This document shows positions 7,934-57,421 of a DNA stretch of 64,000 bases, in pieces. The notes under the pieces were generated by a model. The model was not told the origin of the DNA, searched no databases, and worked only from the letters and a program-made list of their open reading frames with translations. Positions within the stretch are counted from its first letter, which is position 1, and each line of letters begins with the position of its first letter. Origin of the DNA: Pseudomonadota bacterium (GTDB taxonomy: Bacteria > Myxococcota_A > UBA9160 > SZUA-336); NCBI GenBank assembly GCA_003247575.1, contig QJZC01000002.1, positions 69,480 to 133,479 on the forward strand, given 5' to 3'. Made by a program: the position numbers and the translations under genes.

Positions 7934-7965
7934 GATCGACGTAGATCCCGAGTGGAGCAGTAGGG

Positions 7966-12867: not shown

Positions 12868-12873
12868 GCGCGA

Positions 12874-13635
12874 TCAGCGAGATGAGGTACGCGCCTGCAA
12901 CAGTCCGGATTCCGCGAGCTCGTCCTCGGAAGCGCCAAACAGGCCGTCGCCCGCGTTCGCTGCTTTGAGCTCCTGCATGCACTTCATCTGGATATCGAAC
13001 TCCCGTCGGAGGGAATCCAGATTCGGTGCCCTTGTTCCGTGCAGGCCGCGATACTCGTCGAACGAAATCAGAACGGCGGCAGGGCCATTGTGCTTCGTGA
13101 TGACAACGCGATCGCCCGCGAGCACGCGGCCTAGGAGCATTCCGAACTGGTTCTTGGCAGTGGTCGCGGCCACGGACGTAGTGACGTCGCGAAGTTCTAG
13201 TCCGCAGCCGCCCCCTGCGACGGCCCTCCCTGTGGGCTCCGTCGTTCCGGATTGCTGTCTGTGCTCCAAACGAGTGGATATCGTACGAACAAGATCCGCC
13301 GCGCTGATGGGGAGCTCCAGACGGAACGCCCCCAGATCCGCTGCCTCGAGCAGAGGGTGTTCCGGATCGCACAGAAGCAGGGCGGGGACGTCCAAACCAC
13401 GGTCTCGGAGGGTGCGGACAAGTTCGAGGCCTCTCCGGCCGGAAAGCCCCAGATCGCAGAGCAGAAGATCGATGCCTCCGCTCTGAAGCTGCCGGACTGC
13501 CCCACGCAGATGCGTAGCCCAAATTACCGACGCCCCCAGATCGTCGAGACGCCGGAGAACCTCCGCCTTCTGGGAAGCGAGGCTTGGGGTCGCCAGGAGA
13601 AGCCGAGGCCAGAGGCGGGGCTCCTTGGAACGCAT
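12874..13635 (-). CDS. Degenerate response-regulator receiver domain fused to a Phd/YefM antitoxin domain
   Basis: The N-terminal half has a receiver-like beta-alpha pattern (IDLLLCDLGLSGRRGLELVRTLR) but lacks the acidic DD pair (LLLATPS). The C-terminal half TAKNQFGMLLGRVLAGDRVVITKHNGPAAVLISFDEY is Phd/YefM-like. Confidence 0.7.
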   Translation of the reverse strand: MRSKEPRLWPRLLLATPSLASQKAEVLRRLDDLGASVIWATHLRGAVRQLQSGGIDLLLCDLGLSGRRGLELVRTLRDRGLDVPALLLCDPEHPLLEAADLGAFRLELPISAADLVRTISTRLEHRQQSGTTEPTGRAVAGGGCGLELRDVTTSVAATTAKNQFGMLLGRVLAGDRVVITKHNGPAAVLISFDEYRGLHGTRAPNLDSLRREFDIQMKCMQELKAANAGDGLFGASEDELAESGLLQARTSSR

Positions 13636-13894
13636 AATCGCCAGAATAGCTAGACCTCGGAGGGAATGCCCGGCACTTGAGCCGTGGGTGCGGAAGCCAG
13701 TGGTTCAGCGAGAGACGCGGCTGGGCCGTAGGCATCCCGTGCTTCCAGGACACCTTCCCGAGCGCAATGCAACCACCCTGCTCGGAGATCGCGGCAGTCT
13801 GAATTGATCTGATCATCTGTCTCATATCAGCGGGCAAGCAAGCGCTTCGAGCGCCGGCCGTGACAACCTCGCCAGGTTTCGGCGCGCATGACCC

Positions 13895-36366: not shown

Positions 36367-37395
36367 ATGCAGGAACCCACGATCTCACTTCGCATGATCC
36401 GCCCCTTTCTCCAAGCGGCAAGAGAGGGCGGGGTGCCTGAGAGGATGCTCTCGTTCTGGGACCGAATCGACCCGGACACCCGGATTGCGGCCACCTCGGG
36501 ATCGCGACTCCTCTTGGTGGCGTTGGCGCTCACGCGAGACCCCGATATCGGCTTGCGAGCTGCGCTGCAGACCGGTCCCGGCGACTATGACCTGCTCGAG
36601 TATGCCGCGAGCTCCTGCACCACCGTGCGCGAGGCGCTCGAGGTCATGAGTCGCTACCTGTTCCTGATCTCGGACAAGGCCAGGCTCGACTACGAGATTC
36701 GCGGTTCGCGCCTCTACCTCTACCTGTCCCGGCGACCCACTGCACCCACCCGAGATCCAACCGACGACTTTGCGCTCGCATTCTCCTATCTGAGCCATCG
36801 GCGCTGGATAGAAGGGGACCCGTCTCATCTCGAGGTCTGGTTTCCCTATCCGAAGCCGGAAGCATCGACCTTGCACGACACGATCTTCGATCCACGGGTC
36901 AAGCTGACTTTCGGTGCTCCATGCTGTGCGCTGATCAGCGATGCCGCCGATCTCGAGCTGCGACCGCGCGCATCCGATCCGAAGCTCAACGACCTGCTGC
37001 TGCGTTTCGCACAATCCGGAGGGCCGGTTCGCCCATCCCAGCCATCCTTCGTGGACCTGGTGCGCCGAGCCACGCTCGGCGAGTTGCACGGTGGGGACCC
37101 AAGCGCAGAGCACATCGCCGAGCTACTCACGGTGAGCCGCCGCACTCTCGTGAGACGCCTCGAAGAAGCGGGGGTTTCCTTCAAGGATCTGCTCAGCCAC
37201 GTACGATGTACGAGAGCCGTACACTATCTGCTGGTAGAGCAGCTCTCGACTCCAGAGATCGTGGAACGGCTCGGATACTCCGACCGCGCCGCCTTCTCGA
37301 AGGCCTTCAAACGCTGGTTCGGCGTTTCACCCATTCAGTTCGTGCGAGCCCGCACTTCGCAAGACGGCCGCCTCGAAACCCCACTCGCCCACTGA
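36367..37395 (+). CDS. AraC-family transcriptional regulator (AraC-binding-like N-domain plus HTH)
   Basis: C-terminal HTH_18 pattern (IAELLTVSRRTLVRRLEEAGVSFKDLL...PEIVERLGYSDRAAFSKAFKRWFGVSP). Confidence 0.85.
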   Translation: MQEPTISLRMIRPFLQAAREGGVPERMLSFWDRIDPDTRIAATSGSRLLLVALALTRDPDIGLRAALQTGPGDYDLLEYAASSCTTVREALEVMSRYLFLISDKARLDYEIRGSRLYLYLSRRPTAPTRDPTDDFALAFSYLSHRRWIEGDPSHLEVWFPYPKPEASTLHDTIFDPRVKLTFGAPCCALISDAADLELRPRASDPKLNDLLLRFAQSGGPVRPSQPSFVDLVRRATLGELHGGDPSAEHIAELLTVSRRTLVRRLEEAGVSFKDLLSHVRCTRAVHYLLVEQLSTPEIVERLGYSDRAAFSKAFKRWFGVSPIQFVRARTSQDGRLETPLAH

Positions 37396-37642
37396 TTCGC
37401 ATTTAGCCCCCACGGGACGAGACCGCCGCGCGTTTCCCCGCGGCATCATCCGCGCAGCGCGGACCCGCCGCCACCAGGCACCCGCAGGTTGCCAAGCTCG
37501 CTGGGGAGGGCTGGGATTCGAGGTGTGCTCGCCGGACAGCCACCTCTCGCTTCTGGCCCACGGCGAGTTCGGCCTGTGATATGCAGAGGCTCGCAGGGCT
37601 GAGAAAGCGAACTCACGGAGCGCACAGCGGGTGCGAGAATTG

Positions 37643-37671
37643 GCGCAGTGCCCAGGGGTTGGGCACTGCGC
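37643..37671 (+). promoter_or_regulatory. Perfect 12-bp stem hairpin in the leader of the transglutaminase/amidoligase cluster
   Basis: GCGCAGTGCCCA (37643-37654) pairs with TGGGCACTGCGC (37660-37671) around a 5-nt loop. It is followed by three tandem GGGCGCT heptamers (about 37685-37705), 60 nt upstream of the 37732 ATG. Confidence 0.35.
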
Positions 37672-37731
37672 GTGCTTCATGACGGGGCGCTGGGCGCTGG
37701 GCGCTGGGCTAGGAAGGAATAGGTTCAGGCT

Positions 37732-40700
37732 ATGGCGATTCGCGTCGCGCTCGACCATTCGACACGGTATCGGTACGATCGCCCGATCCGTCTATCTCCC
37801 CATGTCGTGCGGCTGCATCCGGCACCGCACACGCGCACTCCCGTGCACGATTACCAGCTGCTGATCGATCCACCCAACCACGAGCTCTCCTGGCAGCAGG
37901 ACCCCTTCGGCAACGTGATCGCGCGCGTGCTGTTTCCAGAACCCGTCCACGAGATGCGATTGCACGTGCGGCTGATCGCAGACATGACGGTCATCAATCC
38001 CTTCGACTTCTTCGTGGAGGAGTCCGCCGAGAATTACCCGTTCACATACGATCCGCGACTTCGGAAGGAGCTGGCACCCTATTTCGAGATCGTAGAACGA
38101 GGACCCCGGCTCTTGGAGTGGCTCGCCAGCGAACCCACCGAACCGTGCCACATCGTGGACTATCTGGTTGGCGTGAATGCGCGCTTGGAAAAGCGCATCG
38201 ATTACACGGTGCGCCTCGATCCAGGCATTCAGAGCTGCGAGGCAACCTTGGAGAAGAGCCTCGGCTCGTGCCGAGACACGGGCTGGTTGCTGGTTCAGAT
38301 TCTGCGCCACAAAGGGCTCGCGGCGCGTTTCGTGTCCGGGTACCTGGTTCAGCTGAAGCCCGACGAGAAGTCGCTCGACGGCCCCTCGGGTACGGATCAC
38401 GATTTCACCGATCTCCACGCATGGGCCGAGGTCTACGTGCCCGGTGCGGGATGGATCGGGCTCGACCCGACCTCGGGGCTGTTTGCCGGCGAAGGTCACA
38501 TTCCGCTCGCGTGCACGCCGGATCCGGTGAGCGCCGCGCCGCTCACCGGCTTCACGGAGAAGTGCGAGACGGAGTTCGAACACAGCAACGAGGTGTTGCG
38601 GATTCACGAGGATCCGCGGGTCACCAAGCCCTATACCGAAGCGCAATGGAATGCGATTCGCTCGCTCGGATGCTCGGTCGATCGCGAGCTCGAGGCCCTC
38701 GACGTGCGGCTCACGATGGGTGGGGAGCCCACCTTCGTCTCGATCGACGACATGGAGGGTGCGGAGTGGAACACGGCCGCGCTCGGGGCCCACAAACGCG
38801 AGCGAGCGCTGGTCTTGGCGGAACGTCTGAAGCAGGTCTTTGCACCCGGTGGCTTTCTGCAATACGGGCAGGGCAAGTGGTATCCCGGCGAGCCAGTCCC
38901 GCGCTGGGCCATCGGCTGCTACTGGCGAAGCGACGGCCGACCGCTCTGGGCGCACGAGCGCCTGGCGGCGGACGAGAATCGCGATTACGGCTTCAATAGC
39001 CCTGAAGCAGCTCGCTTTTCACGCGAACTCGCGCGCCAGCTCGGGTTGGACGACGCCTATGTCGTCGAGGCCCGCGAGGACTGGCTTCACTACCTGTGGC
39101 GCGAGGCGTGCCAGCCGCTCGAGAAGGGCGCACCGAAGCGATCGCAGCCAGCGCATGCCGATGACCTGCAGCAGGCGCTGGCGCGAGGGCTCGATCAGCC
39201 CGTCGGCTATGCGCTGCCTCTGCAGTGGAACTTCGTGACCGGAGGATTCAGCTCGGGCGTCTGGAAGTTCGAGCGGGACGCGCTGTACCTCCTCCCAGGG
39301 AGCTCGCCCATGGGGCTGCGACTTCCGCTCGACGAACTCGGCTGGGTGGCACGCGGTGGCCCTCGCCGCGAGACCGAGCTGAGTGCAGACACACCCGAGG
39401 TAGAGCGAGCCTCAGCCTCCGCTCCGTACGCAGCGCCCGCAAACCGGCGAAGCCCGCATCGATCGGCGCTGTGGCAGCGATCCCCGACACCCAGCGAAGA
39501 GGACCCACGCTGGTGGCACGTTCCGCACGCGGCACTCTGCGTCGAAGCTCGCGAGGGTCGTCTGTACGTGTTCATGCCTTGGCTGGAGCGGTTCGATCAC
39601 TACGCGACCTTGCTCCAAGCGGTCGAAGCCACCGCGGCGGCGCTGGACTGTCCGGTGGCGATCGAGGGCTACGATCCCCCCCGCAGTCCCGAGCTGAGCT
39701 CGCTCAAGGTGACCCCGGACCCCGGAGTCATCGAGGTGAACATCCACCCCGCATCCGACTGGGAATCCCTGGAGCACAACACCGTGCTGCTCTACCGCGA
39801 AGCACGGCAAGCCCGACTGGGCACCGAGAAGTTCATGGTCGACGGGAGGCACACCGGTACCGGTGGAGGGAACCACGTGACACTCGGCGGGCCGAGGCAC
39901 CAGGACAGCCCCTTTCTGCGCCGCCCGGATCTGCTGCGATCGCTGATCACCTACTGGCAACATCACCCAGCACTCTCGTATCTCTTCTCGGGGCTCTTCA
40001 TCGGCCCGACGTCGCAAGCCCCGCGCGTCGACGAGCAGGGAAGCCGTCTACTTGCGGAGCTCGAGCAGAGCTTCGACGAGCTCGAACCGGGAACCGCACC
40101 GGAAACCATCGATCGCGCGCTGCGCACGTTCCTGGCAGACCTGACCGGCAACACACACCGCACCGAGTTCTGCATCGACAAGCTATGGTCCCCCGATTCG
40201 GCCGCCGGACGTCAGGGCCTGGTCGAGTTCCGCGGCTTCGAGATGCCCCCGCACGCGCGCATGAGCCTGGCCCAGATGCTCCTGCTGCGCGCGCTCACCG
40301 CACGCTTCTGGAAGCAGCCTTATCGCAAGCCGCTGGTGCGCTGGGGGACGGCACTGCACGATCGCTTCCTGCTGCCGCAGGCAGTCTGGGACGACTTCTG
40401 TTTCGTGCTGGAAGATCTACAAGGTGCCGGATACGGCTTCGAGGCCGATTGGTTCGCGCCCTTCTTCGAGTTTCGCTTCCCCGTTTATGGTCGGGTCGTC
40501 TATGCGGGCGTCGAGTTCGAGCTGCGGATGGCGCTCGAGCCGTGGCTCGTGCTCGGGGACGAAACCACGGCCCAGCGAGAGGCGCGCGGAGTCGACTCGG
40601 CGCTCGAACGATTGCAGATCAAATGTCGCGGACTCGATCCAGACCGACACGTCGTCACCTGCAACGGTCGGCGCCTTCCACTCCACTCGACTGGCGAAGA

Positions 40701-41094
40701 TGGGGAGTGGTACGCCGGAGTCCGCTACAAAGCCTGGCCGGCTAGCTTTGGCCTCCACACCGGCATCGAGGTGCACGCCCCGCTGGTCTTCGACCTGGTC
40801 GACCGCAGTCTGGGACGCTCGCTCGGAGGCTGCGTCTACTTCGTATCTCACCCTGGAGGCAGACACTACGCGAGCTTTCCGGTGAATGCCTACGAAGCGG
40901 AAGCCCGGCGAATCGGGCGCTTCTGGCACTTTGGACACACCGCGGGCAAGACGCGGGTGCCCGGCGCGATCGAAGATCTGAGGCGACTCTACTCGACCGA
41001 GTCGGAGTCGTGCGCGCGCGAACCGGCGCGCGAGGACATGAATCGCGAGTATCCGTACACCCTCGATCTTCGCCGGAGGCCAGACGTGCCATGA
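37732..41094 (+). CDS. Transglutaminase-N + transglutaminase core + DUF2126 (GS-like putative amidoligase) giant protein, copy A
   Basis: N-terminus HSTRYRYDRPIRLSPHVVRLHPAPH (Bact_transglu_N). Cys-His-Asp triad context GSCRDTGW / DLHAWAEVY / GLDPTSG. A long C-terminal region is collinear with copies B and C. Confidence 0.85.
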   Translation: MAIRVALDHSTRYRYDRPIRLSPHVVRLHPAPHTRTPVHDYQLLIDPPNHELSWQQDPFGNVIARVLFPEPVHEMRLHVRLIADMTVINPFDFFVEESAENYPFTYDPRLRKELAPYFEIVERGPRLLEWLASEPTEPCHIVDYLVGVNARLEKRIDYTVRLDPGIQSCEATLEKSLGSCRDTGWLLVQILRHKGLAARFVSGYLVQLKPDEKSLDGPSGTDHDFTDLHAWAEVYVPGAGWIGLDPTSGLFAGEGHIPLACTPDPVSAAPLTGFTEKCETEFEHSNEVLRIHEDPRVTKPYTEAQWNAIRSLGCSVDRELEALDVRLTMGGEPTFVSIDDMEGAEWNTAALGAHKRERALVLAERLKQVFAPGGFLQYGQGKWYPGEPVPRWAIGCYWRSDGRPLWAHERLAADENRDYGFNSPEAARFSRELARQLGLDDAYVVEAREDWLHYLWREACQPLEKGAPKRSQPAHADDLQQALARGLDQPVGYALPLQWNFVTGGFSSGVWKFERDALYLLPGSSPMGLRLPLDELGWVARGGPRRETELSADTPEVERASASAPYAAPANRRSPHRSALWQRSPTPSEEDPRWWHVPHAALCVEAREGRLYVFMPWLERFDHYATLLQAVEATAAALDCPVAIEGYDPPRSPELSSLKVTPDPGVIEVNIHPASDWESLEHNTVLLYREARQARLGTEKFMVDGRHTGTGGGNHVTLGGPRHQDSPFLRRPDLLRSLITYWQHHPALSYLFSGLFIGPTSQAPRVDEQGSRLLAELEQSFDELEPGTAPETIDRALRTFLADLTGNTHRTEFCIDKLWSPDSAAGRQGLVEFRGFEMPPHARMSLAQMLLLRALTARFWKQPYRKPLVRWGTALHDRFLLPQAVWDDFCFVLEDLQGAGYGFEADWFAPFFEFRFPVYGRVVYAGVEFELRMALEPWLVLGDETTAQREARGVDSALERLQIKCRGLDPDRHVVTCNGRRLPLHSTGEDGEWYAGVRYKAWPASFGLHTGIEVHAPLVFDLVDRSLGRSLGGCVYFVSHPGGRHYASFPVNAYEAEARRIGRFWHFGHTAGKTRVPGAIEDLRRLYSTESESCAREPAREDMNREYPYTLDLRRRPDVP

Positions 41095-44000
41095 GCACTC
41101 GCATCGCGATCACACACCGCATGCAGCAGCACTTTCCTCGAGCCACGGAGCTCTCGACGCACTGGCTGCGACTTCGGCCGGCGCCGCACACGCGCGCCCG
41201 CGTGATGGCGTACTCGCTGCTCGTCGACATCGACTCGCGCTTCGTAAACTGGCTGCGCGATCCGTTCGAGAACTACCTGGCACGCCTCGACCTGCCCGAA
41301 CTGGTGCGCGCCCTCGATATTCGGCTCGAGATCCTGGCTGATCTCGAACCGGTCAATCCGTTCGACTTCTTGCTGGAGCCGTACGCGGCTCGATACCCGT
41401 TCGCCTACCCGGAGCAGCTGCACAAGGAGCTGGAGCCGTACCTGCAAGTCCCACCAGATCGGGGGCCAGCACTCACGCGCTGGATCTCCAGTCTGGATTG
41501 CGCCGCAGGCCCGACCCTCGAGTGGCTCTCCGCGCTCAATCAGCATGTTCACGATTCGTGCGCGCTGATTCCCGGCCCGATTCCTCAGGATCTCGATGTC
41601 GAAGCGACCCTCGAGCGCGGGGCTGGGTCGTGCTGGGAGCTTGCGTGGCTACTGACCTCGAGCCTACGGCTCTCGGGCCTCGCCGCGCGCTTCGTCTGCG
41701 GCTATCGACTCGATCTAGCTCCGGGCTCGGGCGGATTGGATCGCGTTTCGCTGCACAACTGGAGCGAGGTGTACCTGCCGGGGGCCGGTTGGGTCGGGCT
41801 CGACGCGGCCGCTGGCCTGTTCACCGGCGAAACCTACCTGCCCCTGGCGTGTACTCCAGACCCGATGCGCGCGCGACCGGTGGTGGACTCGAAGCAGCGC
41901 CCGCTGAGCTGGCAGAGCGAGACGCTGAAGGTCGAACGTCTGGTTCCAGAGGTACGCTCGTGGCCCTTCTCGGCCGGACAGTGGAGCGACGTGCGAACGC
42001 TCGCTCGTCACATCGAGCAGGACCTGGTGCAGCAGGGGCTCGCATGCACGTCTGGGGTGAGCTTGTCGTTCACATCGCGCACCTCTCCGGAGCTGCCGGA
42101 GTGGAACTCGCGGGCACTCGGCGCCGCAAAGCGTCGGATGGCCGAGCGCTTGTTGGATCGTCTGCGCGATCGGCTCGCGCCCGGAGGTGTCGCGCAGCTG
42201 GGGCAGGGGGACTGGTACGCGGGAGAATCGCTGCCGCGCTGGAGGTTCGGGTATTTCTATCGCGCAGATGGAGTGCCGCTCTGGCACGATGGCGCGCACC
42301 TGGGGGGCGATCCAGCGCGGTCGTTTGGTTCGAGCGATGCGTACGCTTTCCTGAAGCAACTCGCAGATCAGCTCGGGGTGCAGAGCGAGAGTGTACATGC
42401 CGCCTACGAAGACCCGCTTTACGAGCTGTCGCAGCAGCACGCCGCATCCCAGGCCAGAGTCGATGCGGCCGATCTGCGTGACCCGGGCCGGCGTGCATCG
42501 CTCGCAGAGCGCATGTCGGAACGGGCGCACACCGCCGCGGGGTACGTGCTCCCGATCCGTTGGGCCTTGGAAGCGTCGCGTCCCCAGAGCGGCACCTGGG
42601 TATTTCGCCGCAGCCGGATCTATCTGACACCGGGCGACTCCCCGCTCGGTTACCGTCTGCCGCTCGAGAGTCTGGTAGAGGATCCAGAAGGGAAGCGCGA
42701 GGCGCAGCGTGAGTACAGTCCCTTCGAAGCCACTGGACCTCTGCCCGAGCATCCTGCGGGCACCTTGGCGCAGAGCGCGTCTGTGCCTGCACTTGCTTCC
42801 GAGCATCCCCCACGCACCGCGATCTGTGTCCAGCCGCGCGCGGGCAAGCTGTACGTGTTCCTGCCCCCAATGCGTCGGCTCGAACACTACGTCGAGCTCG
42901 TCGCGGCCATCGAGCGGGCCGCCGAGGCAAGCGATGTCTGTGTGGCGCTCGAGGGCTACGCGCCTCCCGAAGACCCGCGGCTGCTGCGGCTGGTTTGCGA
43001 GCCGGAAGTGGGCACTCTGTGCCTACACTTGCCGCAGACGAGCGGTGCGAGTGCTCAGCTGGAGTTGCTTTGCATCGCTTACTCCGAGGCGCGCGCCCTC
43101 GGGCTCGCGGCCGAGCGGCTCTCGGAAGATGGAGAGCGGTTGCCGGTTGGAGGAAGAAGCCGCCTCGTGCTGTCGGGCGCGACTCCAGCGGAGAGCCCTT
43201 TCGTCGCGCGACCGGCAGTCCTCCGCGCGCTGATCGCCTACTTCCAGCGTCACCCATCGCTTTCCTACCTTTTTGCGGATCGCTTGATCGGTGAGCCGGG
43301 CGGGGCGGCGCGGCCGGACGAGGGTCGCGACGACGCGCTGTACGAGCTCTCGATCGCGCTCTCGCGACTCGGCGAAGCGTCCCTTCCGGCGGGGGTCGCA
43401 GCGGATCGCACGTATACAGACCGCGTGCTGCGCCATCTCTTGACCGACCCGAAAGGCGACATGGCTCAGGCCGAAATTCGCGTGGATCAACTCCACCCGC
43501 CCGAGCGCGCCAGCCTGCGCCTCGGACAGATTCAGATTCGCGCGTTCGAGACCGCGCCCGAAGAGCGGACGGCGGCGCTTCAGACCTTGCTACTCCTGGG
43601 CCTACTCGGTCGCTTCGCGCGTCACGGCGATGCGGGAACCCTGACCCGCTTCGGCGGTGATCTCCACGACCGATTCATGCTGCCGCGGATCCTCTGGGAA
43701 GACCTGCGCGAGGTCGTCGCCGACCTGAACACCGCGGGCTACCCGTTCCAGCTCGAGTGGTTCGAGCCGCTGCTCTCGCTACGCTTTCCGCTGCTCGGAC
43801 GCGTTCAGCTGGGGAGCATTGGCCTCGAGCTCTACACCGCACACGAGCCGTGGCCACTGCTCGCCGAGGAGGTCGCAGGCGGGGGAGTGACGCGCTTTCT
43901 GGATGTCGCCAACGAACGTCTGCAGGTTCGGCTTACCGCGCTGACGCCGGGTCGCCATGCGCTGGTGTGCAACGACCGACGTGTGTCGCTGAGGAGCACC

Positions 44001-44390
44001 GGCACGCACGGAGAGTACATCGCCGGAGTGCGCTTCAAAGTGTGGAACCCGCCCGCCACGATGCATCCGACACGACCGCCCGTCGAGGCTCTGGTCTTCG
44101 ACCTGCTGGATCTCTGGACGGGCAGAGTGATCGGGGGATGTACGTACTATCCCCGGCCACCCATTGTATTCGCGCCGATCGGATATCCAGCACAAACGCT
44201 GCCCGCGACTGAGGGTGGAGGCGATGTCTCGCCACCCCCTCCCTTGCCACCGGCGGCGATGCCTTCACCGCGCACGCGACGCGGGCGCTTCGTTCCGCAC
44301 GGGAGTGGTCTGGAGACGCTGCTGGCCCCCGCGCCACACTCCAGCGAACATCGACCCTTCTTGCTCGATCTGACACACGCGGTGTCCTGA
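41091..44390 (+). CDS. Transglutaminase-N + transglutaminase core + DUF2126 putative amidoligase, copy B
   Basis: The ATG at 41091 forms an ATGA overlap with copy A's stop. ITHRMQQHFPRATELSTHWLRLRPAPH; triad context GSCWELAW / LHNWSEVY / GLDAAAG. Collinear with copy A throughout. Confidence 0.85.
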   Translation: MSTRIAITHRMQQHFPRATELSTHWLRLRPAPHTRARVMAYSLLVDIDSRFVNWLRDPFENYLARLDLPELVRALDIRLEILADLEPVNPFDFLLEPYAARYPFAYPEQLHKELEPYLQVPPDRGPALTRWISSLDCAAGPTLEWLSALNQHVHDSCALIPGPIPQDLDVEATLERGAGSCWELAWLLTSSLRLSGLAARFVCGYRLDLAPGSGGLDRVSLHNWSEVYLPGAGWVGLDAAAGLFTGETYLPLACTPDPMRARPVVDSKQRPLSWQSETLKVERLVPEVRSWPFSAGQWSDVRTLARHIEQDLVQQGLACTSGVSLSFTSRTSPELPEWNSRALGAAKRRMAERLLDRLRDRLAPGGVAQLGQGDWYAGESLPRWRFGYFYRADGVPLWHDGAHLGGDPARSFGSSDAYAFLKQLADQLGVQSESVHAAYEDPLYELSQQHAASQARVDAADLRDPGRRASLAERMSERAHTAAGYVLPIRWALEASRPQSGTWVFRRSRIYLTPGDSPLGYRLPLESLVEDPEGKREAQREYSPFEATGPLPEHPAGTLAQSASVPALASEHPPRTAICVQPRAGKLYVFLPPMRRLEHYVELVAAIERAAEASDVCVALEGYAPPEDPRLLRLVCEPEVGTLCLHLPQTSGASAQLELLCIAYSEARALGLAAERLSEDGERLPVGGRSRLVLSGATPAESPFVARPAVLRALIAYFQRHPSLSYLFADRLIGEPGGAARPDEGRDDALYELSIALSRLGEASLPAGVAADRTYTDRVLRHLLTDPKGDMAQAEIRVDQLHPPERASLRLGQIQIRAFETAPEERTAALQTLLLLGLLGRFARHGDAGTLTRFGGDLHDRFMLPRILWEDLREVVADLNTAGYPFQLEWFEPLLSLRFPLLGRVQLGSIGLELYTAHEPWPLLAEEVAGGGVTRFLDVANERLQVRLTALTPGRHALVCNDRRVSLRSTGTHGEYIAGVRFKVWNPPATMHPTRPPVEALVFDLLDLWTGRVIGGCTYYPRPPIVFAPIGYPAQTLPATEGGGDVSPPPPLPPAAMPSPRTRRGRFVPHGSGLETLLAPAPHSSEHRPFLLDLTHAVS

Positions 44391-44445
44391 GCTCGGATCG
44401 CACCAGCGGATCCGGTCTTACGCTCGCTTCTCCCGAAGCTGCGAC

Positions 44446-46611
44446 TCAGACGCGACGCAGGTCGAGACAGTACGCGGTGAGGCTCTGCGGCTCCGGGTCG
44501 CGAGCGGCCGGCAGCTCCGTCGGGTCGAGCCGCTCGACCACGGCGCGCTCGCGCCGGCGTTCCGCAGCCTCATCCAGCCCCAGAGGCAGACCCGGGTAGG
44601 CCACGCCCGCGGGATGCCAGGAGTGCAGCACCGTGCGCAGGGCTGGGTATTCAGGATGGAGCAGGGTGAGGGTGATCTGCGGGGCTGCGTGCAACGTCGG
44701 GTGGATCCCTGTCGGCGGGACGAAGCTGCGATGGCGCAAGCCGCAGATGCGGGTCGCGCGGGCCGTGTCCGATTCGCGACGCAGCGGCACCCGCACCCCA
44801 TTGGCTACGAGCTCGATCGCGTCTAGCTGCTCGGCAAGGTCTTCGGGTGCGCACAGCCGGAGCTCCAGTCGCGCGGTGCTCGCATCGACGGTGCGCGAAC
44901 CGCCTCCCTCTTGCGACGCCACATCGCCTACCAGCGGCCAAAACTCCAGGGCCTGCTCGACCTGAAAGCGAGCGCCGGCGAACTCGAGGCTGACGAGGGT
45001 CGCGTTGGGGCGATCGAGCAGCTGCTGCTCCAGCTCCCGGCCCAGACCGAAGCCCGCTTGCGCCAGTTCGGACAGGACCTCGGAGAGATCGCGCTGCAGA
45101 TAGAACGGTAGAGCGAAGCGGTCGTGGAGGGCATCGCCCCAATCGACCAGATCGGGCGCGCGATCCTCACCCGCCAGCATCAAGAGAATGCTGCGAAACA
45201 ACAACACGCGAGCGATGGCGCGAGGCAGACTCTCTGGCATGGCCAGTGCGCGCAGCTCGACCAGCCCCAAGCGCCCACGGCCGGGCAGAAACGGATTGTC
45301 GAGCTTCTCGATGTTGAGCTCGCTGCGATGCGGATTTCCCGCTGCATCCGCCAGAAAGTGACGCAGCGTACTCCACAGCGTCTCTGCCGTCGGTGAATCG
45401 ATTCGTTCGAGCTGCTCGAGTGCAACCTGAAGTTCGAGGAAGGCTCCGCGCAGGCCTTCGTCCGCGCGTGGGGATTGACTCGAGCCACCCACGTAAGGGG
45501 TCGCGAACCAGTACGACAGCGCCGGGTGGCGAATCACGTAGCGAACCAAGCGGGGCAAGAGCGCGGGATGCACGAAGAACGGGCTTTGCGCCGGTGAGGG
45601 ACCGCCGAAGGTCAGATGCCCGCCACCGCCCGAGTCGGAGACTTCTCCGTTGTACTGCAGCCGGTACGGAGAGAGCCCCACCTCCTGCGCAAGCTCGAAG
45701 ATGCATCGTTCGGCGCGATAGAAGGCCTGCAAGCTCGGCTCGGGGGCTTGATTGATCTCCAATACCGCAGGATCCGGCGTCACCGTCGTCCACGCAACCG
45801 AGTCGTCGGCCGGAGGAGCGAATCCGCGGAGTCCCAGCGACGCCACCGCTCTGGCGGCGCATACGGCCGCGAGTTCGCGGAGGAACTGCAGGTATTCCCC
45901 GACGTCCGTGAACCCGGGTAGCTCGAGCCAGAACGCGTTGCCAGAGGACACATCTCCCTGATGAATCAGGATGAGGTACGTTCCCTCAGCTGCGAGCGGG
46001 TCTACTGGGCCGCCGTCGGTCACACGAGCGGCGTGAATCGAATCGCGAGCGAGCCGTGGATCCTCCGCGGAATCAAAGCAATCCGGCTGACCGGACGCGC
46101 GACACACGATGCGCCGCACGCTCGCTTCACCGATGTCGCAGGGCGCGGCAAACCATCCTGACCTCTGGAGTCGATCACAGAGAGCATCCCGGAGTCCGTC
46201 CAGGGCGCCCGCGTCTGGCTGCTTGGGTGGGGTGTCGGTCAGCAGGTCGGGCGGGCCGGACCAGACCGGCTGCCCATCCCGCCGGGCATAGATCCCATAG
46301 CAGAAGCGGGGAAACGGTTCGCCGGCGTATTGCCGACCAAGGGGACGCAACACCGCGGCTCCCGGAAACCGCTCTCGCAGCTTGGTGATCATCTGTCGTG
46401 CCCGCCGCTCCTTGTCCTCGCCCAGCGCCTCGGACAGCCACTCGGGCGCTTCGGAGCTGCGGTCGGTGAAGGTCGGTTCGGCCCCGATCCAGACGACCAC
46501 GGACGCATTGAGCGCACTCCGGTCGTGGGCCTCGATGCTCCTCTCTAGCTGAGCGCGATCGACCTCCGTCATGGTCAGAACCTGGTGTGGCTCACCCGTT
46601 CGAGTCCTCAT
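44446..46611 (-). CDS. Stand-alone DUF2126-type putative amidoligase (copy C, no transglutaminase module)
   Basis: Begins where the amidoligase part of A/B begins (VVWIGAEPTFTDRSSEAPEW vs LTMGGEPTFVSIDDMEGAEW). Shares GGGHLTFGG / HPALSYWF / ELRALAMP-type blocks and the C-terminal ..LDLRR. motif. Start is ATG 46611 or 46572. Confidence 0.75.
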   Translation of the reverse strand: MRTRTGEPHQVLTMTEVDRAQLERSIEAHDRSALNASVVVWIGAEPTFTDRSSEAPEWLSEALGEDKERRARQMITKLRERFPGAAVLRPLGRQYAGEPFPRFCYGIYARRDGQPVWSGPPDLLTDTPPKQPDAGALDGLRDALCDRLQRSGWFAAPCDIGEASVRRIVCRASGQPDCFDSAEDPRLARDSIHAARVTDGGPVDPLAAEGTYLILIHQGDVSSGNAFWLELPGFTDVGEYLQFLRELAAVCAARAVASLGLRGFAPPADDSVAWTTVTPDPAVLEINQAPEPSLQAFYRAERCIFELAQEVGLSPYRLQYNGEVSDSGGGGHLTFGGPSPAQSPFFVHPALLPRLVRYVIRHPALSYWFATPYVGGSSQSPRADEGLRGAFLELQVALEQLERIDSPTAETLWSTLRHFLADAAGNPHRSELNIEKLDNPFLPGRGRLGLVELRALAMPESLPRAIARVLLFRSILLMLAGEDRAPDLVDWGDALHDRFALPFYLQRDLSEVLSELAQAGFGLGRELEQQLLDRPNATLVSLEFAGARFQVEQALEFWPLVGDVASQEGGGSRTVDASTARLELRLCAPEDLAEQLDAIELVANGVRVPLRRESDTARATRICGLRHRSFVPPTGIHPTLHAAPQITLTLLHPEYPALRTVLHSWHPAGVAYPGLPLGLDEAAERRRERAVVERLDPTELPAARDPEPQSLTAYCLDLRRV

Positions 46612-46760
46612 GGTCTCCGCGCTCTTCGCGAGCGCATCGAGCTGGTGGCGAGGATATCCTCGGACGTGCAAGACTGCGAGTCTGCCCGGGTGCCCTGGAC
46701 GTCGGCCGGTGACCCTCCCAGCGGTCCGCCCGAGCAGAGCAATGGCGCTTCGATGACACC

Positions 46761-49238
46761 ATGCTGAGATACTGGGACGAGACGGCCGGTAGCGACGGAA
46801 ACACCAAGCCACCGTGGGAGCAGCTGATCGCTGCACTCGAGCGGCTTGGCAAGCGCGAGCTGGCGGCCCGGCGGGCGCACGCGCGCCGGATCATCGAGGA
46901 GAACGGGGTGACGTACAACGTGTACGGTGACCCCCGTGGAGCCGAGCGTCCCTGGGTGCTCGACACGATCCCGATCCTGATTGACGCTTCGGAGTGGCAG
47001 GTTCTCGAGGCGGCGATCCAGCAGCGGGCCGAGCTTCTCAATCGCCTGTTGGCGGACTTGTACGGTCCGCAGCGGCTGCTGCGCGAGGATCTACTGCCCC
47101 CAGAGCTGGTTTTCGCGCATCCCGGGTTCTTACGTCCGTGTCACGGGTTGGCGTTGCCCGGTAACCGCTACGTGCACACCTACGCCGTCGATCTGGCGCG
47201 GTCGCCCGACGGACAGTGGTGGGTGCTCGGCGACCGGATTCAGGCCCCGGCCGGCGCGGGCTACGCCTTGGAGAACCGGTTGGTCATGTCTCGCGCGATG
47301 CCCGAACTCTTCGGGGAGTTCTACGTGCACCGCCTGGCGGAATACTTTCAGGCCTATCGCGCGGCTCTCGCACAGATCGCACCAGCCGGCTGCGAGAATC
47401 CGCGGATCGTGCTCCTGACCCCGGGCCCATTGAACGAGACCTACTTCGAGCACGCATATCTGGCGCGCTACCTCGGATTTCCGTTGGTGGAGGGCGCAGA
47501 CCTCACCGTGCGCGACAGCCGCGTGTACCTGAAGACGCTCTCCGGACTGCAGCGGGTGGATGTGATTCTGCGCCGACAGGACGCACACTTCTGCGACCCG
47601 CTGGAGCTGTTCGGTGAGTCTGCGCTGGGTGTGCCCGGACTCGTCCGAGCCGTCCGCGCCGGACGCGTCACGATCGCGAACGCGCTCGGATCCGGTCTGG
47701 TGGAGACACCCGCCACGATGGCGTTTCTGCCCGGACTCTGCCGCCAACTGCTGGGCGAAGAATTGCGCATTCCCTCCGTCGCTACGTGGTGGTGCGGCCA
47801 GCAGCGCGAGCTGGAGTACGCGCTCGCCCATCTCGACCAACTCGTCTGGAAGCCCGCCTTCCCCGGGCCTGCGGACACTCGAGTAGACATGCTGGTCGGC
47901 GACACGCTGACCCGAAAGCAACGCCAGGGTCTAGAGGCTCGGATCCGCGCGCGGCCTCACCGCTGGGTCGCCCAGGAGAAGGTGGCGCTGTCCACCGTTC
48001 CCACCGGCGACCCTGGCAACCTGAATCCGCGCCACATGGTCTTGCGCGCCTACGCGGTGGCTCACGACCGCGGCTGGACCGTGATGCCAGGCGGGCTGAC
48101 CCGCGTCTCGAGCCGCGGGGATAGCTTGGTGGTCACGAGCCAGCGCGGCGGCGCGAGCAAGGATACGTGGGTGCTTGCAGCCGAGCCCACTCCTTTCGTC
48201 ACCTTGCTCCCGCCCGCAACGAGTCCCGAGGAGGTGTCCAGGCGCACCGCATCGCTCACCAGCCGGGTGGCCGACGACCTGCTCTGGCTCGGTCGCGGCA
48301 CTGAGCGCGTGGAGGCCAGCGTGCGCTTGTTCCGAGCGGCCTTCCAGGCGTTGGCCGACGAGCCGCTGCGCGTCTCCGACTTGCCCGCCCCGGAGTCGGT
48401 TCGGCTGATCCAGTGCATGGGCAAGATTCCCTCCCCGGAGGAGACGCCCGGAAGCCTGCAGGAACGCCTGCTCGGAGCCCTATTCGACCGCACGATCGCG
48501 ACGAGCGTCGGACACAGTGTAGGCGAGGTCCACCGACTCGCGTCGGTCCTGCGCGATCAGATCTCACCCGACGCCTGGCGCGTGCTCGGTCGCCTCGACA
48601 GCGCGTTCATTGGGCCCTCGGCGCATCCTGCTCGGCGAGTGTCCGCGACGCTCGAGCTCCTGGACAGTGCGCTGCTGCGAATCACCGCCTTTACCGGACT
48701 CGTGAGCGAGAGCATGACGCGTGGTTTGGGCTGGCAGTTCCTCGAGATCGGCCGACGCTTCGAGCGAGCGATTCAGGTCGTACAGCTGCTCTACCATGGT
48801 CTGCTCGAGGGGCTGCCCGAAGACTCGCGACGGCTCGAGCTGGTTCTCTCGGTCGCGGATTCCGCCATGACCTATCGCTCGCGCTACCAGACCTCGATCC
48901 AACTCCCGCTGGTCCTCGACCTGCTGCTGTTCGATGAGCTGAATCCGCGCTCGGTCTGCTTTCAGCTGGTGCGGTTGGAGGAGCGCTTCAGCTCCCTCCA
49001 TCGGGCGCCGCTGGAGGAGTTGCGCATGCTTCTCGAGCGGCTTCGCACAGCGCAGCTCGACGAGCTGATCGCCTTGCACGCCGGCGAAGACGGCCGTCAA
49101 ACACGTGCCGAGCTGGCCCGACTGCTCGAAGCGCTCGATGCCGGACTCCCGGCACTCTCGGACGCTCTGACCCATGCCTACCTGATCCACATCTTGCCGC
49201 AACGTCAGGGGCCGAGCTTTCGGCCGGCAAAGCCGTAA
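46761..49238 (+). CDS. Circularly permuted type-2 ATP-grasp fused to an alpha-E domain
   Basis: GVTYNVYGDPRGAERPWVLDTIPILI, GYALENRLVMSR, LTPGPLNETYFEHAYLARYLGFPLVEGADLTV and IPSVATWWCGQ are CP-ATP-grasp blocks. LTSRVADDLLWLGRGTERVEA starts an alpha-E domain at about residue 505. Confidence 0.85.
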   Translation: MLRYWDETAGSDGNTKPPWEQLIAALERLGKRELAARRAHARRIIEENGVTYNVYGDPRGAERPWVLDTIPILIDASEWQVLEAAIQQRAELLNRLLADLYGPQRLLREDLLPPELVFAHPGFLRPCHGLALPGNRYVHTYAVDLARSPDGQWWVLGDRIQAPAGAGYALENRLVMSRAMPELFGEFYVHRLAEYFQAYRAALAQIAPAGCENPRIVLLTPGPLNETYFEHAYLARYLGFPLVEGADLTVRDSRVYLKTLSGLQRVDVILRRQDAHFCDPLELFGESALGVPGLVRAVRAGRVTIANALGSGLVETPATMAFLPGLCRQLLGEELRIPSVATWWCGQQRELEYALAHLDQLVWKPAFPGPADTRVDMLVGDTLTRKQRQGLEARIRARPHRWVAQEKVALSTVPTGDPGNLNPRHMVLRAYAVAHDRGWTVMPGGLTRVSSRGDSLVVTSQRGGASKDTWVLAAEPTPFVTLLPPATSPEEVSRRTASLTSRVADDLLWLGRGTERVEASVRLFRAAFQALADEPLRVSDLPAPESVRLIQCMGKIPSPEETPGSLQERLLGALFDRTIATSVGHSVGEVHRLASVLRDQISPDAWRVLGRLDSAFIGPSAHPARRVSATLELLDSALLRITAFTGLVSESMTRGLGWQFLEIGRRFERAIQVVQLLYHGLLEGLPEDSRRLELVLSVADSAMTYRSRYQTSIQLPLVLDLLLFDELNPRSVCFQLVRLEERFSSLHRAPLEELRMLLERLRTAQLDELIALHAGEDGRQTRAELARLLEALDAGLPALSDALTHAYLIHILPQRQGPSFRPAKP

Positions 49239-50173
49239 TGCTCTACCGAGTCGTTCACCAGACGCGCTATACGTACAGCGGCCCGGCGTCCACCTCGCAC
49301 AATCTCGGTCACCTGTTGCCGCGGCGAACCGATCGGCAGAAGCTTCATCAGCTGGAGCTTCGCATCGATCCGTCACCGACCGACGTCGAGTCCTATCAGG
49401 ACTACTTTGGGAACGACGTCGTGGTCTTCACCTTGCTCGAACCGCATGAGCAGATGTGTGTGCGGACTCAGAGCTGGATCGAGGTGACAGCCCCGGCTCT
49501 GACTCAGCTGGACACATCCCCGGCATGGGAAGAAGTGGTGAGCAGTCTTCGGCGCCGCGAAGATCCCGACGCCTTCGCCGCGCTCGAAATGATCTGGGAG
49601 TCGCCCTTCGTGGACACCGGACCCGAGTTTGCGGCATACGCCCGTCCGTCGTTCCCCCCCACCCGGCGACTGCTGGATGCGCTCCTCGATTTCAACCACC
49701 GCATCTTCAGTGAGTTCCACTACGACCCTGAGGCCACGACCTTGGCAACGCCGATTCACAAGGTGCTCCAAGAGCGACACGGCGTTTGTCAGGACTATGC
49801 CCACCTGATGATCGGTTGCCTGCGCTCTCTGGGTCTGCCTGCGCGTTACGTGAGTGGGTACATCCGCAGCGCGGACGCGCCCGCCGACGCGGCTCGAGGG
49901 AGCGGCGCGGAGCTCGTCGGCTCGGAGGCCTCGCACGCGTGGGTCTCGGCCTGGTGTCCACCCTACGGTTGGCTCGATTTGGATCCCACGAACGACCTCG
50001 TGCCTTCCGATCAACACGTCCTGCTGGCCTACGGGCGTGACTACGATGATGTGAGCCCACTAAAGGGAGTCACCTTGGGCGGAGGCAAACACACGATAGA
50101 GGTTCAGGTGGACGTTCGTCCCACCCAGACCCTTCCCGCGAGCACGGGACCGAGCGCTTCCACCGGACTTTGA
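49238..50173 (+). CDS. Transglutaminase-family protein (Bact_transglu_N + transglutaminase core)
   Basis: MLYRVVHQTRYTYSGPASTSHN; triad context GVCQDYAH / SHAWVSAW / DLDPTN. TAATG stop/start overlap with the upstream gene. Confidence 0.85.
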   Translation: MLYRVVHQTRYTYSGPASTSHNLGHLLPRRTDRQKLHQLELRIDPSPTDVESYQDYFGNDVVVFTLLEPHEQMCVRTQSWIEVTAPALTQLDTSPAWEEVVSSLRRREDPDAFAALEMIWESPFVDTGPEFAAYARPSFPPTRRLLDALLDFNHRIFSEFHYDPEATTLATPIHKVLQERHGVCQDYAHLMIGCLRSLGLPARYVSGYIRSADAPADAARGSGAELVGSEASHAWVSAWCPPYGWLDLDPTNDLVPSDQHVLLAYGRDYDDVSPLKGVTLGGGKHTIEVQVDVRPTQTLPASTGPSASTGL

Positions 50174-51429: not shown

Positions 51430-51672
51430 GCGAGCGTCTCCTCGTAGTCGCGGTACTTCGTTGGAATGGTGGTTGGAACGGTGTCCTGCGGGCGTCATCG
51501 ATTCTACCGCCTAGGGGGCCGCTCTGGGTGTGCTTCCGGCGCTCGCGGAAGAGACTCTGCGGCTGCGCCGGATCCCCGACGGCATGCTCGCGAGCCGCCC
51601 CACGGCTGGAGCTTCGAGCCAGGGCGGTGATAGACTCGCCCTCGCACGCTCGAGAAGAAGGAGGGCGATGGC

Positions 51673-52710
51673 ATGGCAGGTGAAGTCGTCACAGAGGTGC
51701 GCGAGGCACACCGCTTCGATGAACGCGCCCTCGGGGCCTATCTGGCGGAGCGCATTCCCGGATTCAAGGCAGAGATTGCAGTGCGGCAGTTCGAGGGGGG
51801 GCAGTCGAATCCCACCTTCTTGATCGAGTCGGGCGATCGCAAGTACGTCATGCGCAAGAAGCCGCCGGGCCAGCTCCTCGCCACGGCTCACATGGTCGAG
51901 CGCGAGTACCGCATCATGACGGCCCTCCAGGATACCGACGTGCCGGTACCGCGGACGTACCTCCTGTGCGAGGATCCGGACCTCACCGGCACGGCCTTCT
52001 TCTTGATGGAGTTCAGTCAGGGCCGTCTGCTGCGCGACGCGAGTCTGCCGGGCCTGAGCCTGGAGCGGCGCCGTGCGACCTATCGAGAGATGGCGCGCGT
52101 TCTCGCTGCTCTTCACGCACTCGAGCCATCGGAGGTCGGACTGGCCGACTATGGCAAGTCCGGCAACTACTTCAAACGGCAGATCGAGCGCTGGACCAAG
52201 CAGTACGTAGACGCGAAGACGAGCGAAATCGATTGCATGGAGGCACTGATCGAGTGGCTTCCCGCCAACATGCCGGACGACAGCTCGAACCGCATCGTGC
52301 ACGGCGACTACCTGCTCAACAACATGATCTTCCACCCGGAAGAGGATCGGGTGATCGCGGTGCTCGACTGGGAGCTGTCGACCCTGGGGCATCCACTCGC
52401 CGATCTCGCCTACAACTGCATGCCATATCACCTCAACCGAACTGGTGCACCGCTCAACACACTGACCGACACGGGCATCCCATCCGAGTCCGACTACGTC
52501 GCACAATACTGCGAGCTCTCCGGACGCTCCGGCATCGACCGCTGGAACTTCTACCTGGCATTCTCGTTCTTCCGCTACGCGAGCATCATCCAAGGGGTCT
52601 ACAAGCGCGGCCTGCAGGGAAACGCGAGCTCGCAGTCGGCAAAGGGAATGGGCGCCTACGTCAAGGTCGTGGGCGACATCGGCTGGGGACTGGCCCAGCG
52701 GCAGGAGTGA
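51673..52710 (+). CDS. Phosphotransferase (APH/choline-kinase fold) family protein
   Basis: VRQFEGGQSNPTFLIESGDRKYVMRKKPPG, IVHGDYLLNNMIF and VLDWELSTLGHPLADLAY match the APH-like domain found N-terminal in ACAD10/11. Confidence 0.85.
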   Translation: MAGEVVTEVREAHRFDERALGAYLAERIPGFKAEIAVRQFEGGQSNPTFLIESGDRKYVMRKKPPGQLLATAHMVEREYRIMTALQDTDVPVPRTYLLCEDPDLTGTAFFLMEFSQGRLLRDASLPGLSLERRRATYREMARVLAALHALEPSEVGLADYGKSGNYFKRQIERWTKQYVDAKTSEIDCMEALIEWLPANMPDDSSNRIVHGDYLLNNMIFHPEEDRVIAVLDWELSTLGHPLADLAYNCMPYHLNRTGAPLNTLTDTGIPSESDYVAQYCELSGRSGIDRWNFYLAFSFFRYASIIQGVYKRGLQGNASSQSAKGMGAYVKVVGDIGWGLAQRQE

Positions 52711-52865
52711 GGAGTGAGCAGGTCGGGTTGGCCTCTCCGGCCCGCGTTGACCGCCCGGCAGCGCGGTGGTAGATTGCGCCGGAAGTGCAAGCCGAGTCTT
52801 GCGTTCGTGATCGAGCCTCGTAGCTAAGAACATCGCCAAGAAAGAACATCGCCAAGAACGCCAAG

Positions 52866-53046
52866 AAGAGTCGTAGCCAGGGGCAGGAAGCCGGTGAGAA
52901 TCCGGCGCGGTGCCGCCACTGTGACCGGGGAGTAGCGATCCATTTCGAGCCACTGCCAGCACGCTGTAGCCAATGCGCGGTCAGCGTGCGCCGGCGGGAA
53001 GGCGGGTCGTTGCATTGAACCGCAGCCAGGACATTGCCGCGCTACG
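52866..53046 (+). promoter_or_regulatory. Cobalamin (B12) riboswitch
   Basis: GGAAGCCGGTGAGAATCCGGCGCGGTGCCGCCACTGTGA core, GAGCCACTG B12 box, GGGAAGGCGGG and the 3' element AGCCAGGACATTGCCGC. It lies upstream of cbtB-cbtA. Boundaries are approximate. Confidence 0.75.
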
Positions 53047-57328: not shown

Positions 57329-57421
57329 GAGGCGAGTCCTTTTCAGCTCCCGGATGCCGAGGCAACCGCCAGTCTACTGCATCGCAGAAGAGGCCAAGTG
57401 CGCTTGCTCTCGACACCCCGG

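Follow-up and report, generated by a model that had tools for sequence, protein, structure and literature searches.

The question raised by the locus described here is what five adjacent genes, at positions 37732–50173 of a 64,000-nucleotide stretch of contig QJZC01000002.1 (the whole stretch being called the window), make or break together. The genes, which we name A to E in order, encode three relatives of the DUF2126 family (A, B and C), a fusion of a circularly permuted ATP-grasp domain (CP-ATP-grasp) with an Alpha-E domain (D) and a small transglutaminase-like protein (E). The locus is a genuine five-gene cluster of amide-bond-making and amide-bond-cutting enzymes, and it is still uncharacterised. 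We read it as an enlarged form of a widespread cytoplasmic operon, composed of A, D and E, with B as a partner of A and C as a free ligase, the products of which would build and trim a peptide-type substrate; the probability of this reading is, in our estimate, about 55%. The observations behind it are gene content, domain families, a ligase fold, conservation patterns and recurrent gene linkage.

Gene A (37732–41094, plus strand, 1120 amino acids, taken from the list of open reading frames (ORFs)) contains a Bact_transglu_N domain (residues 6–82, 37747–37977; Pfam E-value 1e-23), a Transglut_core domain (residues 149–246, 38176–38469, with Cys180, His229 and Asp245; 9e-15) and a DUF2126 region, the glutamine-synthetase-like ligase (residues 276–1114, 38557–41073; 1163 bits). 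Gene B (41091–44390, plus strand, 1099 amino acids) has the architecture of A, with a DUF2126 match of 725 bits (1.4e-217) at residues 279–1021 (41925–44153) and matches to both transglutaminase models. A and B each pass the gathering scores of all three Pfam models, which is the Rv2566-type architecture in one protein of ~1100 amino acids. Gene C (44446–46611, minus strand), convergent with B and divergent from D, has a related but different architecture, namely DUF2126 alone (392 bits). Gene D (46761–49238, plus strand, 825 amino acids) matches CP_ATPgrasp_2 (4e-158; CP_ATPgrasp_1 as well) at residues 71–450 (46971–48110) and Alpha-E (1.5e-60) at residues 499–808 (48255–49184), including the ER motif FLEIGRRFERA. 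Gene E (49238–50173, plus strand, 311 amino acids) is a small protein of Bact_transglu_N (5e-23) and Transglut_core (1e-21). These family assignments, already proposed in the initial annotation, have scores far beyond chance, and its coordinates for A, B, D and E, together with the 4-bp ATGA overlap of A and B (ccATGAgc) and the TAATG junction with a 1-nt overlap of D and E (gTAATGct), were read directly as claimed. For C, the end at 44446 holds and the start is uncertain: ATG 46611, with a GGAG Shine–Dalgarno-like motif just upstream, would give 721 amino acids, and ATG 46572, at which the 708-residue database copy P0241 begins, would give 708. The longest ORF of C, starting with GTG at 46836, was rejected, as it overlaps D and opens with an Arg-rich stretch unlike protein.

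The three DUF2126 proteins are distant from each other, A and B sharing 38% identity, and A and C as well as B and C each sharing ~32% over the ligase core. Searches with A, B and C recovered three separate groups, and every one of 358 length-filtered matches scored best against the query type by which it had been retrieved. A-type proteins (~1100–1140 amino acids, 60–73% identical to window A) number more than 100 orthologues, from Polyangiales, Gammaproteobacteria (Methylococcaceae, Chromatiaceae) and Planctomycetes (Pirellulaceae). B-type proteins (~1095–1130 amino acids, 45–63% identical to window B, the closest 80%) come from the same kinds of hosts and are kept full-length over several phyla. 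C-type proteins (~700–750 amino acids, 45–66% identical to window C, the closest 81%) are without the transglutaminase domain and were confirmed in 350 GTDB species genomes among those scanned. In the family at large, a HMMER search of 1.84 billion representatives returned 1790 relatives of DUF2126 at E ≤ 1e-3, which are a mix of ~700-residue and ~1000–1190-residue forms. Judged by these homologue searches, A, B and C each represent an old orthologous group of their own, and are not recent local duplicates as the term paralogues in the initial annotation would suggest. For the B- and C-type groups, no description was found in the literature searched, which contained no mention of DUF2126.

To compare the groups residue by residue, 51 sequences of each type were aligned, and a column was taken as invariant if the same residue was present in ≥95% of both A- and C-types. 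By this definition there are 90 invariant columns, and 37 of the 90 are not conserved in B-types. The losses in the B clade affect short motifs at their polar and charged positions (A numbering): E332, the Glu of GGEPTF; T661, E668 and N670 of TPDPxVxExN; the second and third Gly of GGGNH; S761 and Q762; N807, H809 and partly R810 of NxHRxE; K817; E832 of ExR; R853; and the C-terminal cluster R1059/R1060/R1063. In window B we found E332→S, T661→E, E668→C, N670→H, G713→R, S761/Q762→G/G, N807/H809/R810→D/A/Q, K817→Q, E832→Q and R853→L, and the C-terminal Arg cluster is absent; in pairwise comparison with A, GGEPTF has become GVSLSF, GGGNH has become GGRSR, HRTEF has become AQAEI and EFR has become QIR. 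The polar ligase motifs (GGEPTF, TPDPxVxExN, GGGNH, SQxPRxDE, NxHRxE, ExR and a C-terminal RRxxR) are complete in A and C and incomplete in window B, and the same columns are unconserved over the 51 B-types. A carries every ligase residue that is invariant in A- and C-types, C carries all invariant columns of 25 C-types, and D keeps 39 of 39 invariant columns of 37 fusion-type homologues, the ER motif of Alpha-E included. Degenerate catalytic residues were found in the ligase motifs of B, and the invariant residues of A, C and D are kept.

A similar picture was obtained for the transglutaminase domain. C180, H229 and D245 of A are each kept in 120/120 A-types, and E has a triad of Cys (GVCQD), His (SHAWVS) and Asp (DLDPT). 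In B-types the His and Asp are kept, and the nucleophile position (n = 119) is Cys in 24, Pro in 46, Ala in 26, Ser in 15 and a few other residues in the rest; P0122, an orthologue 80% identical to window B, has Ser. The intact Cys/His/Asp contexts first reported for both proteins are present, as SCRD/HAWAEVY/LDPT in A and SCWE/HNWSEVY/LDAA in B, but the Cys position of B is not conserved among its orthologues, and the Cys-His-Asp of window B appears not to be under visible selection. B also lies ~8–19 identity points further from the window copy than does A in the same loci, with A/B identities to the window proteins of 88/80% in L083, 67/49% in L001 and 62/43% in L078.

Despite these losses, B is kept directly behind A in 12 of 12 evaluable loci (the window, L001, L002, L078 and L083–L090), and the 4-bp overlap of the two genes recurs in the seven loci with called genes (L001, L002, L083–L087) in addition to the window. 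Because B is tightly coupled by translation to an active A and has lost both catalytic centres, it is most likely a pseudoenzyme, serving as a non-catalytic partner or scaffold subunit of an A:B hetero-complex. Hence the four ligase and three thiol modules counted at the outset are an overcount: since B has lost its catalytic residues clade-wide, the number of centres falls from seven to about five, with some three credible ligase centres (A, C and D) and two credible thiol centres (A and E) predicted. The DUF2126 family would accordingly be split into an active fused form, an inactive fused form always standing beside an active one, and an active unfused form. This split looks new relative to the literature searched, as does the lowered count of catalytic centres.

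The initial annotation called the locus a supercluster; it is not an unusual one, being a widespread A→D→E operon plus B and C, with each pairing of the modules recurring in other phyla. Operons were sampled by a metagenome scan with the B alignment, which yielded mostly A-type loci, as the chosen peptide patterns are shared, and four new B-type loci. The ATP-grasp::Alpha-E fusion (D) directly follows A on the same strand in 39/63 evaluable metagenome loci, D and then E follow A in 27/38, and a second, unfused pair of ATP-grasp and Alpha-E genes precedes A in 25/47. A→D→E is thus the commonest arrangement round A-type genes in the metagenome sample, where D homologues behind A are 36–52% identical to window D, and E homologues behind D are 38–51% identical to window E. 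The window is this operon with B added after A and C added on the opposite strand. The exact order A-B-[C on the opposite strand]-D-E was not seen in the other loci examined, and its parts were found in several combinations. In a metagenome-assembled genome (MAG) of Chromatiaceae (JAJDNF01, contig 74; L087), ATP-grasp, Alpha-E, A, B, ATP-grasp::Alpha-E and small transglutaminase genes follow each other on one strand at 3289–15833, and the same MAG has a C-type gene on another contig (L014). This six-gene operon is the most complete co-directional version seen. A-B-D or B-D-E fragments occur in L088 and L090; in two Pirellulaceae (L078 and L086) no more than 4 kb separates A-B from C, and A-B adjoins C and the small transglutaminase gene tgC that is described below; C adjoins an A-D-E operon in L031, L045 and L073; A-B is convergent with C, as in the window, in the two closest relatives, L083 and L084; and A-B stands without the other modules in L001, L002 and L085. 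From this gene linkage, a multi-step pathway, as was initially suggested, is plausible.

C-type genes have a partner of their own. With non-overlapping ORFs only, a gene for a Bact_transglu_N and Transglut_core protein of ~290–300 amino acids, tgC, stands upstream of C and divergent from it in 32 loci, out of 72 in which the sequence upstream of C exceeds 1.5 kb. As tgC is 32% identical to the N-terminal module of A (E 4e-45) and 23% identical to E, tgC and C together are, by homology, a split version of A. No tgC was found in the window, and in the lineage of the window C sits beside A-B in its place. Other neighbours of C-type genes were observed in passing: a ComF-like protein (double zinc ribbon and phosphoribosyltransferase) precedes the C-type genes of Competibacteraceae and relatives in 15 loci, and a phosphoglucomutase follows them in 11 loci, among L003–L082. 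Example coordinates of C-type neighbours are L013:9013–9909(-), L025:9080–9868(+) and L051:8537–10168(+).

The ligase assignment of DUF2126, initially taken from Pfam, is now backed by predicted structure, distantly. The AlphaFold model of C (predicted local distance difference test (pLDDT) 94.4, predicted template modelling score (pTM) 0.94) has as its best Foldseek match the GCS2 protein YbdK (1r8g; E 2.8e-4, probability 1.0), followed by 1tt4, Dop, PafA, many glutamine synthetases and the gamma-glutamylmethylamide synthetase GmaS. The model supports a carboxylate-amine ligase fold for the core of C, and the family-invariant residues E32, E217, E272 and E439 (C numbering) sit in predicted beta-strands. 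This agrees with the earlier profile-based placement of the Rv2566 family in the carboxylate-amine ligase superfamily (PMC2588565). DUF2126 is ~830 amino acids long and, in the models, extends past the ~300-residue ligase core into a large beta-rich C-terminal domain. In the AlphaFold model of A (pLDDT 85), the first ~290 residues match 3isr, a 'putative cysteine protease' of Cytophaga (E 8e-14, TM score 0.74), and further TglA, TG2/TG3 and the PeiP endoisopeptidase; for the C-terminal part, the fold matches to glutamine synthetases are weak, and weaker than those of the C model. Residues 6–472 of D align end to end with PDB entry 3n6x (E 3.6e-98). Compared with PafA/Dop, GCS2 (YbdK) and glutamine synthetase, the best fold matches, the DUF2126 core has conserved acidic, His and Arg residues on the strands of its predicted sheet, where they would be expected in ligases that form acyl-phosphates. 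DUF2126 differs in having no sequence match to these enzymes, in its roughly doubled length and additional helical and beta-rich domains, and in having no gene for a Pup-like tag.

The kind of system was predicted by comparative genomics in 2008–2009, and the five-gene form is a variant of it. Iyer et al. reportedly predicted in 2009 an operon of CP-ATP-grasp, Alpha-E and transglutaminase genes, with Anbu in some cases, and we take Rv2566, Rv2567 and Rv2569c of Mycobacterium tuberculosis, Rv2566 alone being confirmed, to have the same three architectures as A, D and E, Rv2569c being presumably an E-type homologue. The attribution of such predictions to the Aravind group in the initial annotation agrees with the papers found: the Rv2566 family, present in M. 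tuberculosis and many bacteria, was described by Iyer, Burroughs & Aravind in 2008 as an N-terminal transglutaminase-like domain with a C-terminal carboxylate-amine ligase (PMC2588565), and the Anbu operon is discussed in structure papers (PMC5666114, PMC6376114). A has the Rv2566-type architecture, with Cys-His-Asp and ligase motifs conserved, the difference being that window A is followed by the decayed copy B and has the ligase-only C nearby. D and E resemble the Anbu-type operon in carrying ATP-grasp, Alpha-E with the ER motif and transglutaminase in the same order, on one strand and coupled; they differ from it in that ATP-grasp and Alpha-E are fused, in being joined to three DUF2126 genes, and in that E is followed by an acyl-CoA dehydrogenase gene on the opposite strand and not by Anbu, a gene that is frequent but not universal in this operon type (PMC5666114). 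The paper on the Anbu structure states that the hypotheses published up to then were all unconfirmed (PMC6376114), and no later characterisation of the Anbu-type operon was found in the literature searched. Rv2567 was expressed as a candidate gamma-aminobutyric acid (GABA)-trehalose synthetase, and the activity belonged to Rv1722 (bioRxiv 10.64898/2026.04.15.718621). According to one report, Rv2569c is secreted and cleaves E-cadherin as a 'serine protease', inhibited by phenylmethylsulfonyl fluoride (PMSF) and 4-(2-aminoethyl)benzenesulfonyl fluoride (AEBSF) and not by E-64 or N-ethylmaleimide (NEM), while its conserved domains indicate a cysteine protease (PMC11081392). Such a secreted protease fits badly with an operon setting that is conserved and cytoplasmic.

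All characterised enzymes with the matched fold spend ATP on activating a carboxylate, in most cases the gamma-carboxylate of Glu, which they join to an amine; ATP-grasp enzymes perform the same chemistry on a different scaffold, and transglutaminase-fold Cys-His-Asp enzymes hydrolyse, deamidate or transfer amide and isopeptide bonds. In our model, A and C would each use ATP to activate a carboxylate as acyl-phosphate and then join it to an amine, the carboxylate being, by analogy with glutamine synthetase, GCS2 and PafA, probably a Glu-type side-chain or a C-terminal one. B would hold or scaffold within the A:B hetero-complex in a non-catalytic manner, D would make amide or peptide bonds of another kind, using the chemistry of ATP-grasp enzymes, and the Cys-His-Asp domains of A and E would hydrolyse, deamidate or transfer gamma-glutamyl-type or isopeptide amides. 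With all steps joined, a peptide or peptide-modified substrate would be built and then trimmed. A more specific form of this model, in which an obligate A:B heteromer, the dead B binding or presenting the substrate or regulating A, acts together with C and D-E as a three-ligase cytoplasmic machine for isopeptide or gamma-glutamyl modification under nitrogen control, is a speculation that we consider unlikely to hold in full; if true, the product of such a machine would be of an undescribed class, made in thousands of bacteria including M. tuberculosis.

Nitrogen enters the argument through homologous operons, which three independent data sets connect with nitrogen limitation. In Burkholderia cenocepacia, the genes I35_5080–83 (ATP-grasp, Alpha-E, transglutaminase and a large transglutaminase protein) are 6- to 9.4-fold lower in an ntrC mutant (PMC5491218). 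On nitrate versus ammonium, Pseudomonas putida PP_2688 (CP-ATP-grasp) and PP_2685 (Anbu) show log2 fold changes of 3.99 and 4.44, i.e. about 16- and 22-fold (PMC8050072). Moreover, the domains of the operon co-vary with urea-metabolism domains in marine metagenomes (PMC3597751), and induction of Anbu under nitrogen starvation has been summarised (PMC6376114). These data suggest that the homologous operons belong to a nitrogen-limitation response, to which the window locus would be linked by homology only.

In the region upstream of A (37396–37731, plus strand, read as sequence), a perfect 12-bp inverted repeat (GCGCAGTGCCCA at 37643–37654 and TGGGCACTGCGC at 37660–37671, with a 5-bp spacer) lies ~60 bp before the start of A and could be an operator; it is not conserved in the 88%-identical locus L083. 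Downstream of the repeat are three tandem copies of GGGCGCT (37685–37709) and the ribosome-binding site of A, AGGAAGGAA (37711–37719), the latter conserved in L083. A sigma-54/NtrC promoter upstream of A was considered for a site with two mismatches at 37661–37676 and rejected, as sites of this quality number 20 in the window, where chance predicts 21, and L083 does not have this one. The divergent intergenic region of C and D (46612–46760, ~150–190 bp depending on the choice of the C start) presumably houses both the promoter of C and that of D-E; a sigma-70 consensus was not detected there, nor were promoter-like sites anywhere in the cluster. A scan of the cluster for terminators gave three sites against ~5 expected, all inside genes; at the high GC of this genome, the promoter and terminator scans are both uninformative.

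Several alternatives have to be weighed against an operon that builds and trims a peptide-type substrate. The one that survives best, still improbable to our mind, is scavenging of small-molecule nitrogen, in which amines would be gamma-glutamylated in the style of PuuA, GmaS or IpuC and the amide released by a thiol enzyme of the PuuD type, with no peptide or protein substrate. PuuA/PuuD, GmaS and similar enzymes are gamma-glutamylation pairs of amine catabolism, and the logic of a glutamine-synthetase-like ligase with a thiol amidohydrolase is the same. All characterised fold relatives of the DUF2126 core are ligases that activate a Glu carboxylate, GmaS and the glutamine synthetase homologue 4hpp included, and the homologous operons are strongly induced on nitrogen limitation, together with genes for urea, polyamine and amino-acid uptake. 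However, the protein families of the window are others: none of the five proteins has a match to Gln-synt_C or Peptidase_C26 in the Pfam scan, and the thiol enzyme has the papain/transglutaminase fold. The size of DUF2126, with its beta-rich domain beyond the core, ATP-grasp, Alpha-E and, elsewhere, the proteasome-like Anbu fit poorly into an amine pathway, and no transporter or oxidoreductase is conserved beside the related loci.

Tagging and de-tagging of proteins in the manner of Pup fares less well again. A and C would then join the carboxylate of a protein to target lysines, and the transglutaminase domains would act as deamidase or deconjugase like Dop; Dop and PafA rank high among the fold matches of C, a ligase fused to an amidase mirrors the PafA/Dop pair, and protein tagging has been proposed, among other functions, for the related Anbu operon (PMC6376114). 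Against this, a scan of the intergenic gaps revealed no credible or conserved small ORF in or beside the cluster, just as Iyer et al. found no Pup-like ORFs near Rv2566-type genes (PMC2588565), and no proteasome or Anbu gene adjoins E. We therefore regard it as doubtful.

A further alternative concerns B alone, which might be a neofunctionalised paralogue with a different active site and chemistry, so that the locus would have four ligase-type catalysts. B-types are full-length over several phyla, they retain structural residues (Trp, Gly, Pro and many others) and many invariant charged ones (H745, R765, D767, E768, D803, E812, E936, R952, D955, R998 and H1009) in addition to the transglutaminase His and Asp, and the window copy has Cys at the nucleophile position. 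However, the lost residues have not been replaced by a new conserved set: most of the columns vary within the B clade, for instance E668 (R in 59%), N670 (T in 18%) and E832 (T in 20%), and variable columns that have not been re-fixed point to relaxed constraint rather than to new constraint, so we give this alternative slightly less credit than tagging. That A-B, C and D-E are three unrelated units, neighbours by chance, would agree with three transcription units on two strands, with the lack of D-E beside C in L083 and with A-B standing alone in some loci, but it is very improbable: Chromatiaceae, Pirellulaceae, other Gammaproteobacteria and many metagenome contigs have the modules adjoining each other in varied order and orientation, and chance would not be expected to produce such recurrent linkage of families that only a small share of genomes carry.

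Returning to the enlarged operon, in which A, C and D would act as ligases and B as a partner, a number of points weigh against it. Concerning gene order, A-B and D-E are separate transcription units with C interposed, and in L083, the closest relative, C has no D-E next to it. For B, the window copy keeps Cys-His-Asp, so some thiol activity is possible, and the A:B complex is one that we infer from gene coupling and residue loss alone. The likeness of the C model to glutamine synthetase is at fold level only (TM 0.19/0.34), with low scores that reflect coverage of just ~300 of 708 residues and a distant relationship; a search of DUF2126 against all PDB sequences (phmmer and a 25-sequence profile) returned no member of the superfamily even at E ≤ 10. 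As for regulation, no supported sigma-54/NtrC-type site was found at the locus, and the nitrogen data come from Proteobacteria, a lineage other than that of the window. Finally, the literature searched contained no biochemical activity, substrate or product for the DUF2126, CP-ATP-grasp/Alpha-E and Bact_transglu_N proteins of the system, in line with the initial annotation.

The unit was set at 37732–50173 because the genes on either side are not conserved near related loci. Upstream of A lie an AraC-type regulator (36367–37395) and an aldo-keto reductase; no AraC-family gene adjoins any of ~165 related loci, and the gene was rejected as a cognate regulator and treated as unrelated flank. Beyond E, the acyl-CoA dehydrogenase, of which one distant match only was found near related loci and which was likewise taken as unrelated flank, is followed by a 483-residue ORF without a Pfam match. 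None of the five proteins matched an NCBIfam model or a PADLOC model of anti-phage defence. Base composition is even over the whole window. Judged only by the best homologue matches and by gene content, the host would be Polyangiales-like.

Other features of the window were observed on the way. Long ORFs at 51511–52962 (minus strand, the 483-residue one) and 32834–34327 (plus strand, 497 amino acids) have no Pfam match. A family B DNA polymerase with exonuclease and polymerase domains (54980–57328, minus strand) adjoins a tyrosine (phage-type) integrase (57422–58564, minus strand), and the pair at 54980–58564 may belong to an integrated mobile element. Two proteins of ~1300 amino acids combine a Ser/Thr protein kinase with AAA_16 (STAND-like), at 13895–17785 (plus strand) and 28719–32690 (minus strand); such proteins also flank A-B on both sides in the Polyangiales MAG locus L001 (5451–9539 and 17341–21078), which may be a coincidence in the kinase-rich Myxococcota. 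An SpvB and FG-GAP repeat protein at 18363–20186 (minus strand) is like the N-terminal part of toxin-complex/Rhs-type proteins.

The core system is among the more widespread bacterial operons still without an assigned substrate, being found in thousands of bacteria, among them pathogens such as M. tuberculosis, Burkholderia and Pseudomonas. The present locus sharpens this problem without solving it, by a split of the DUF2126 family, by a smaller number of catalytic centres and by a testable A:B complex in which one subunit would be active.

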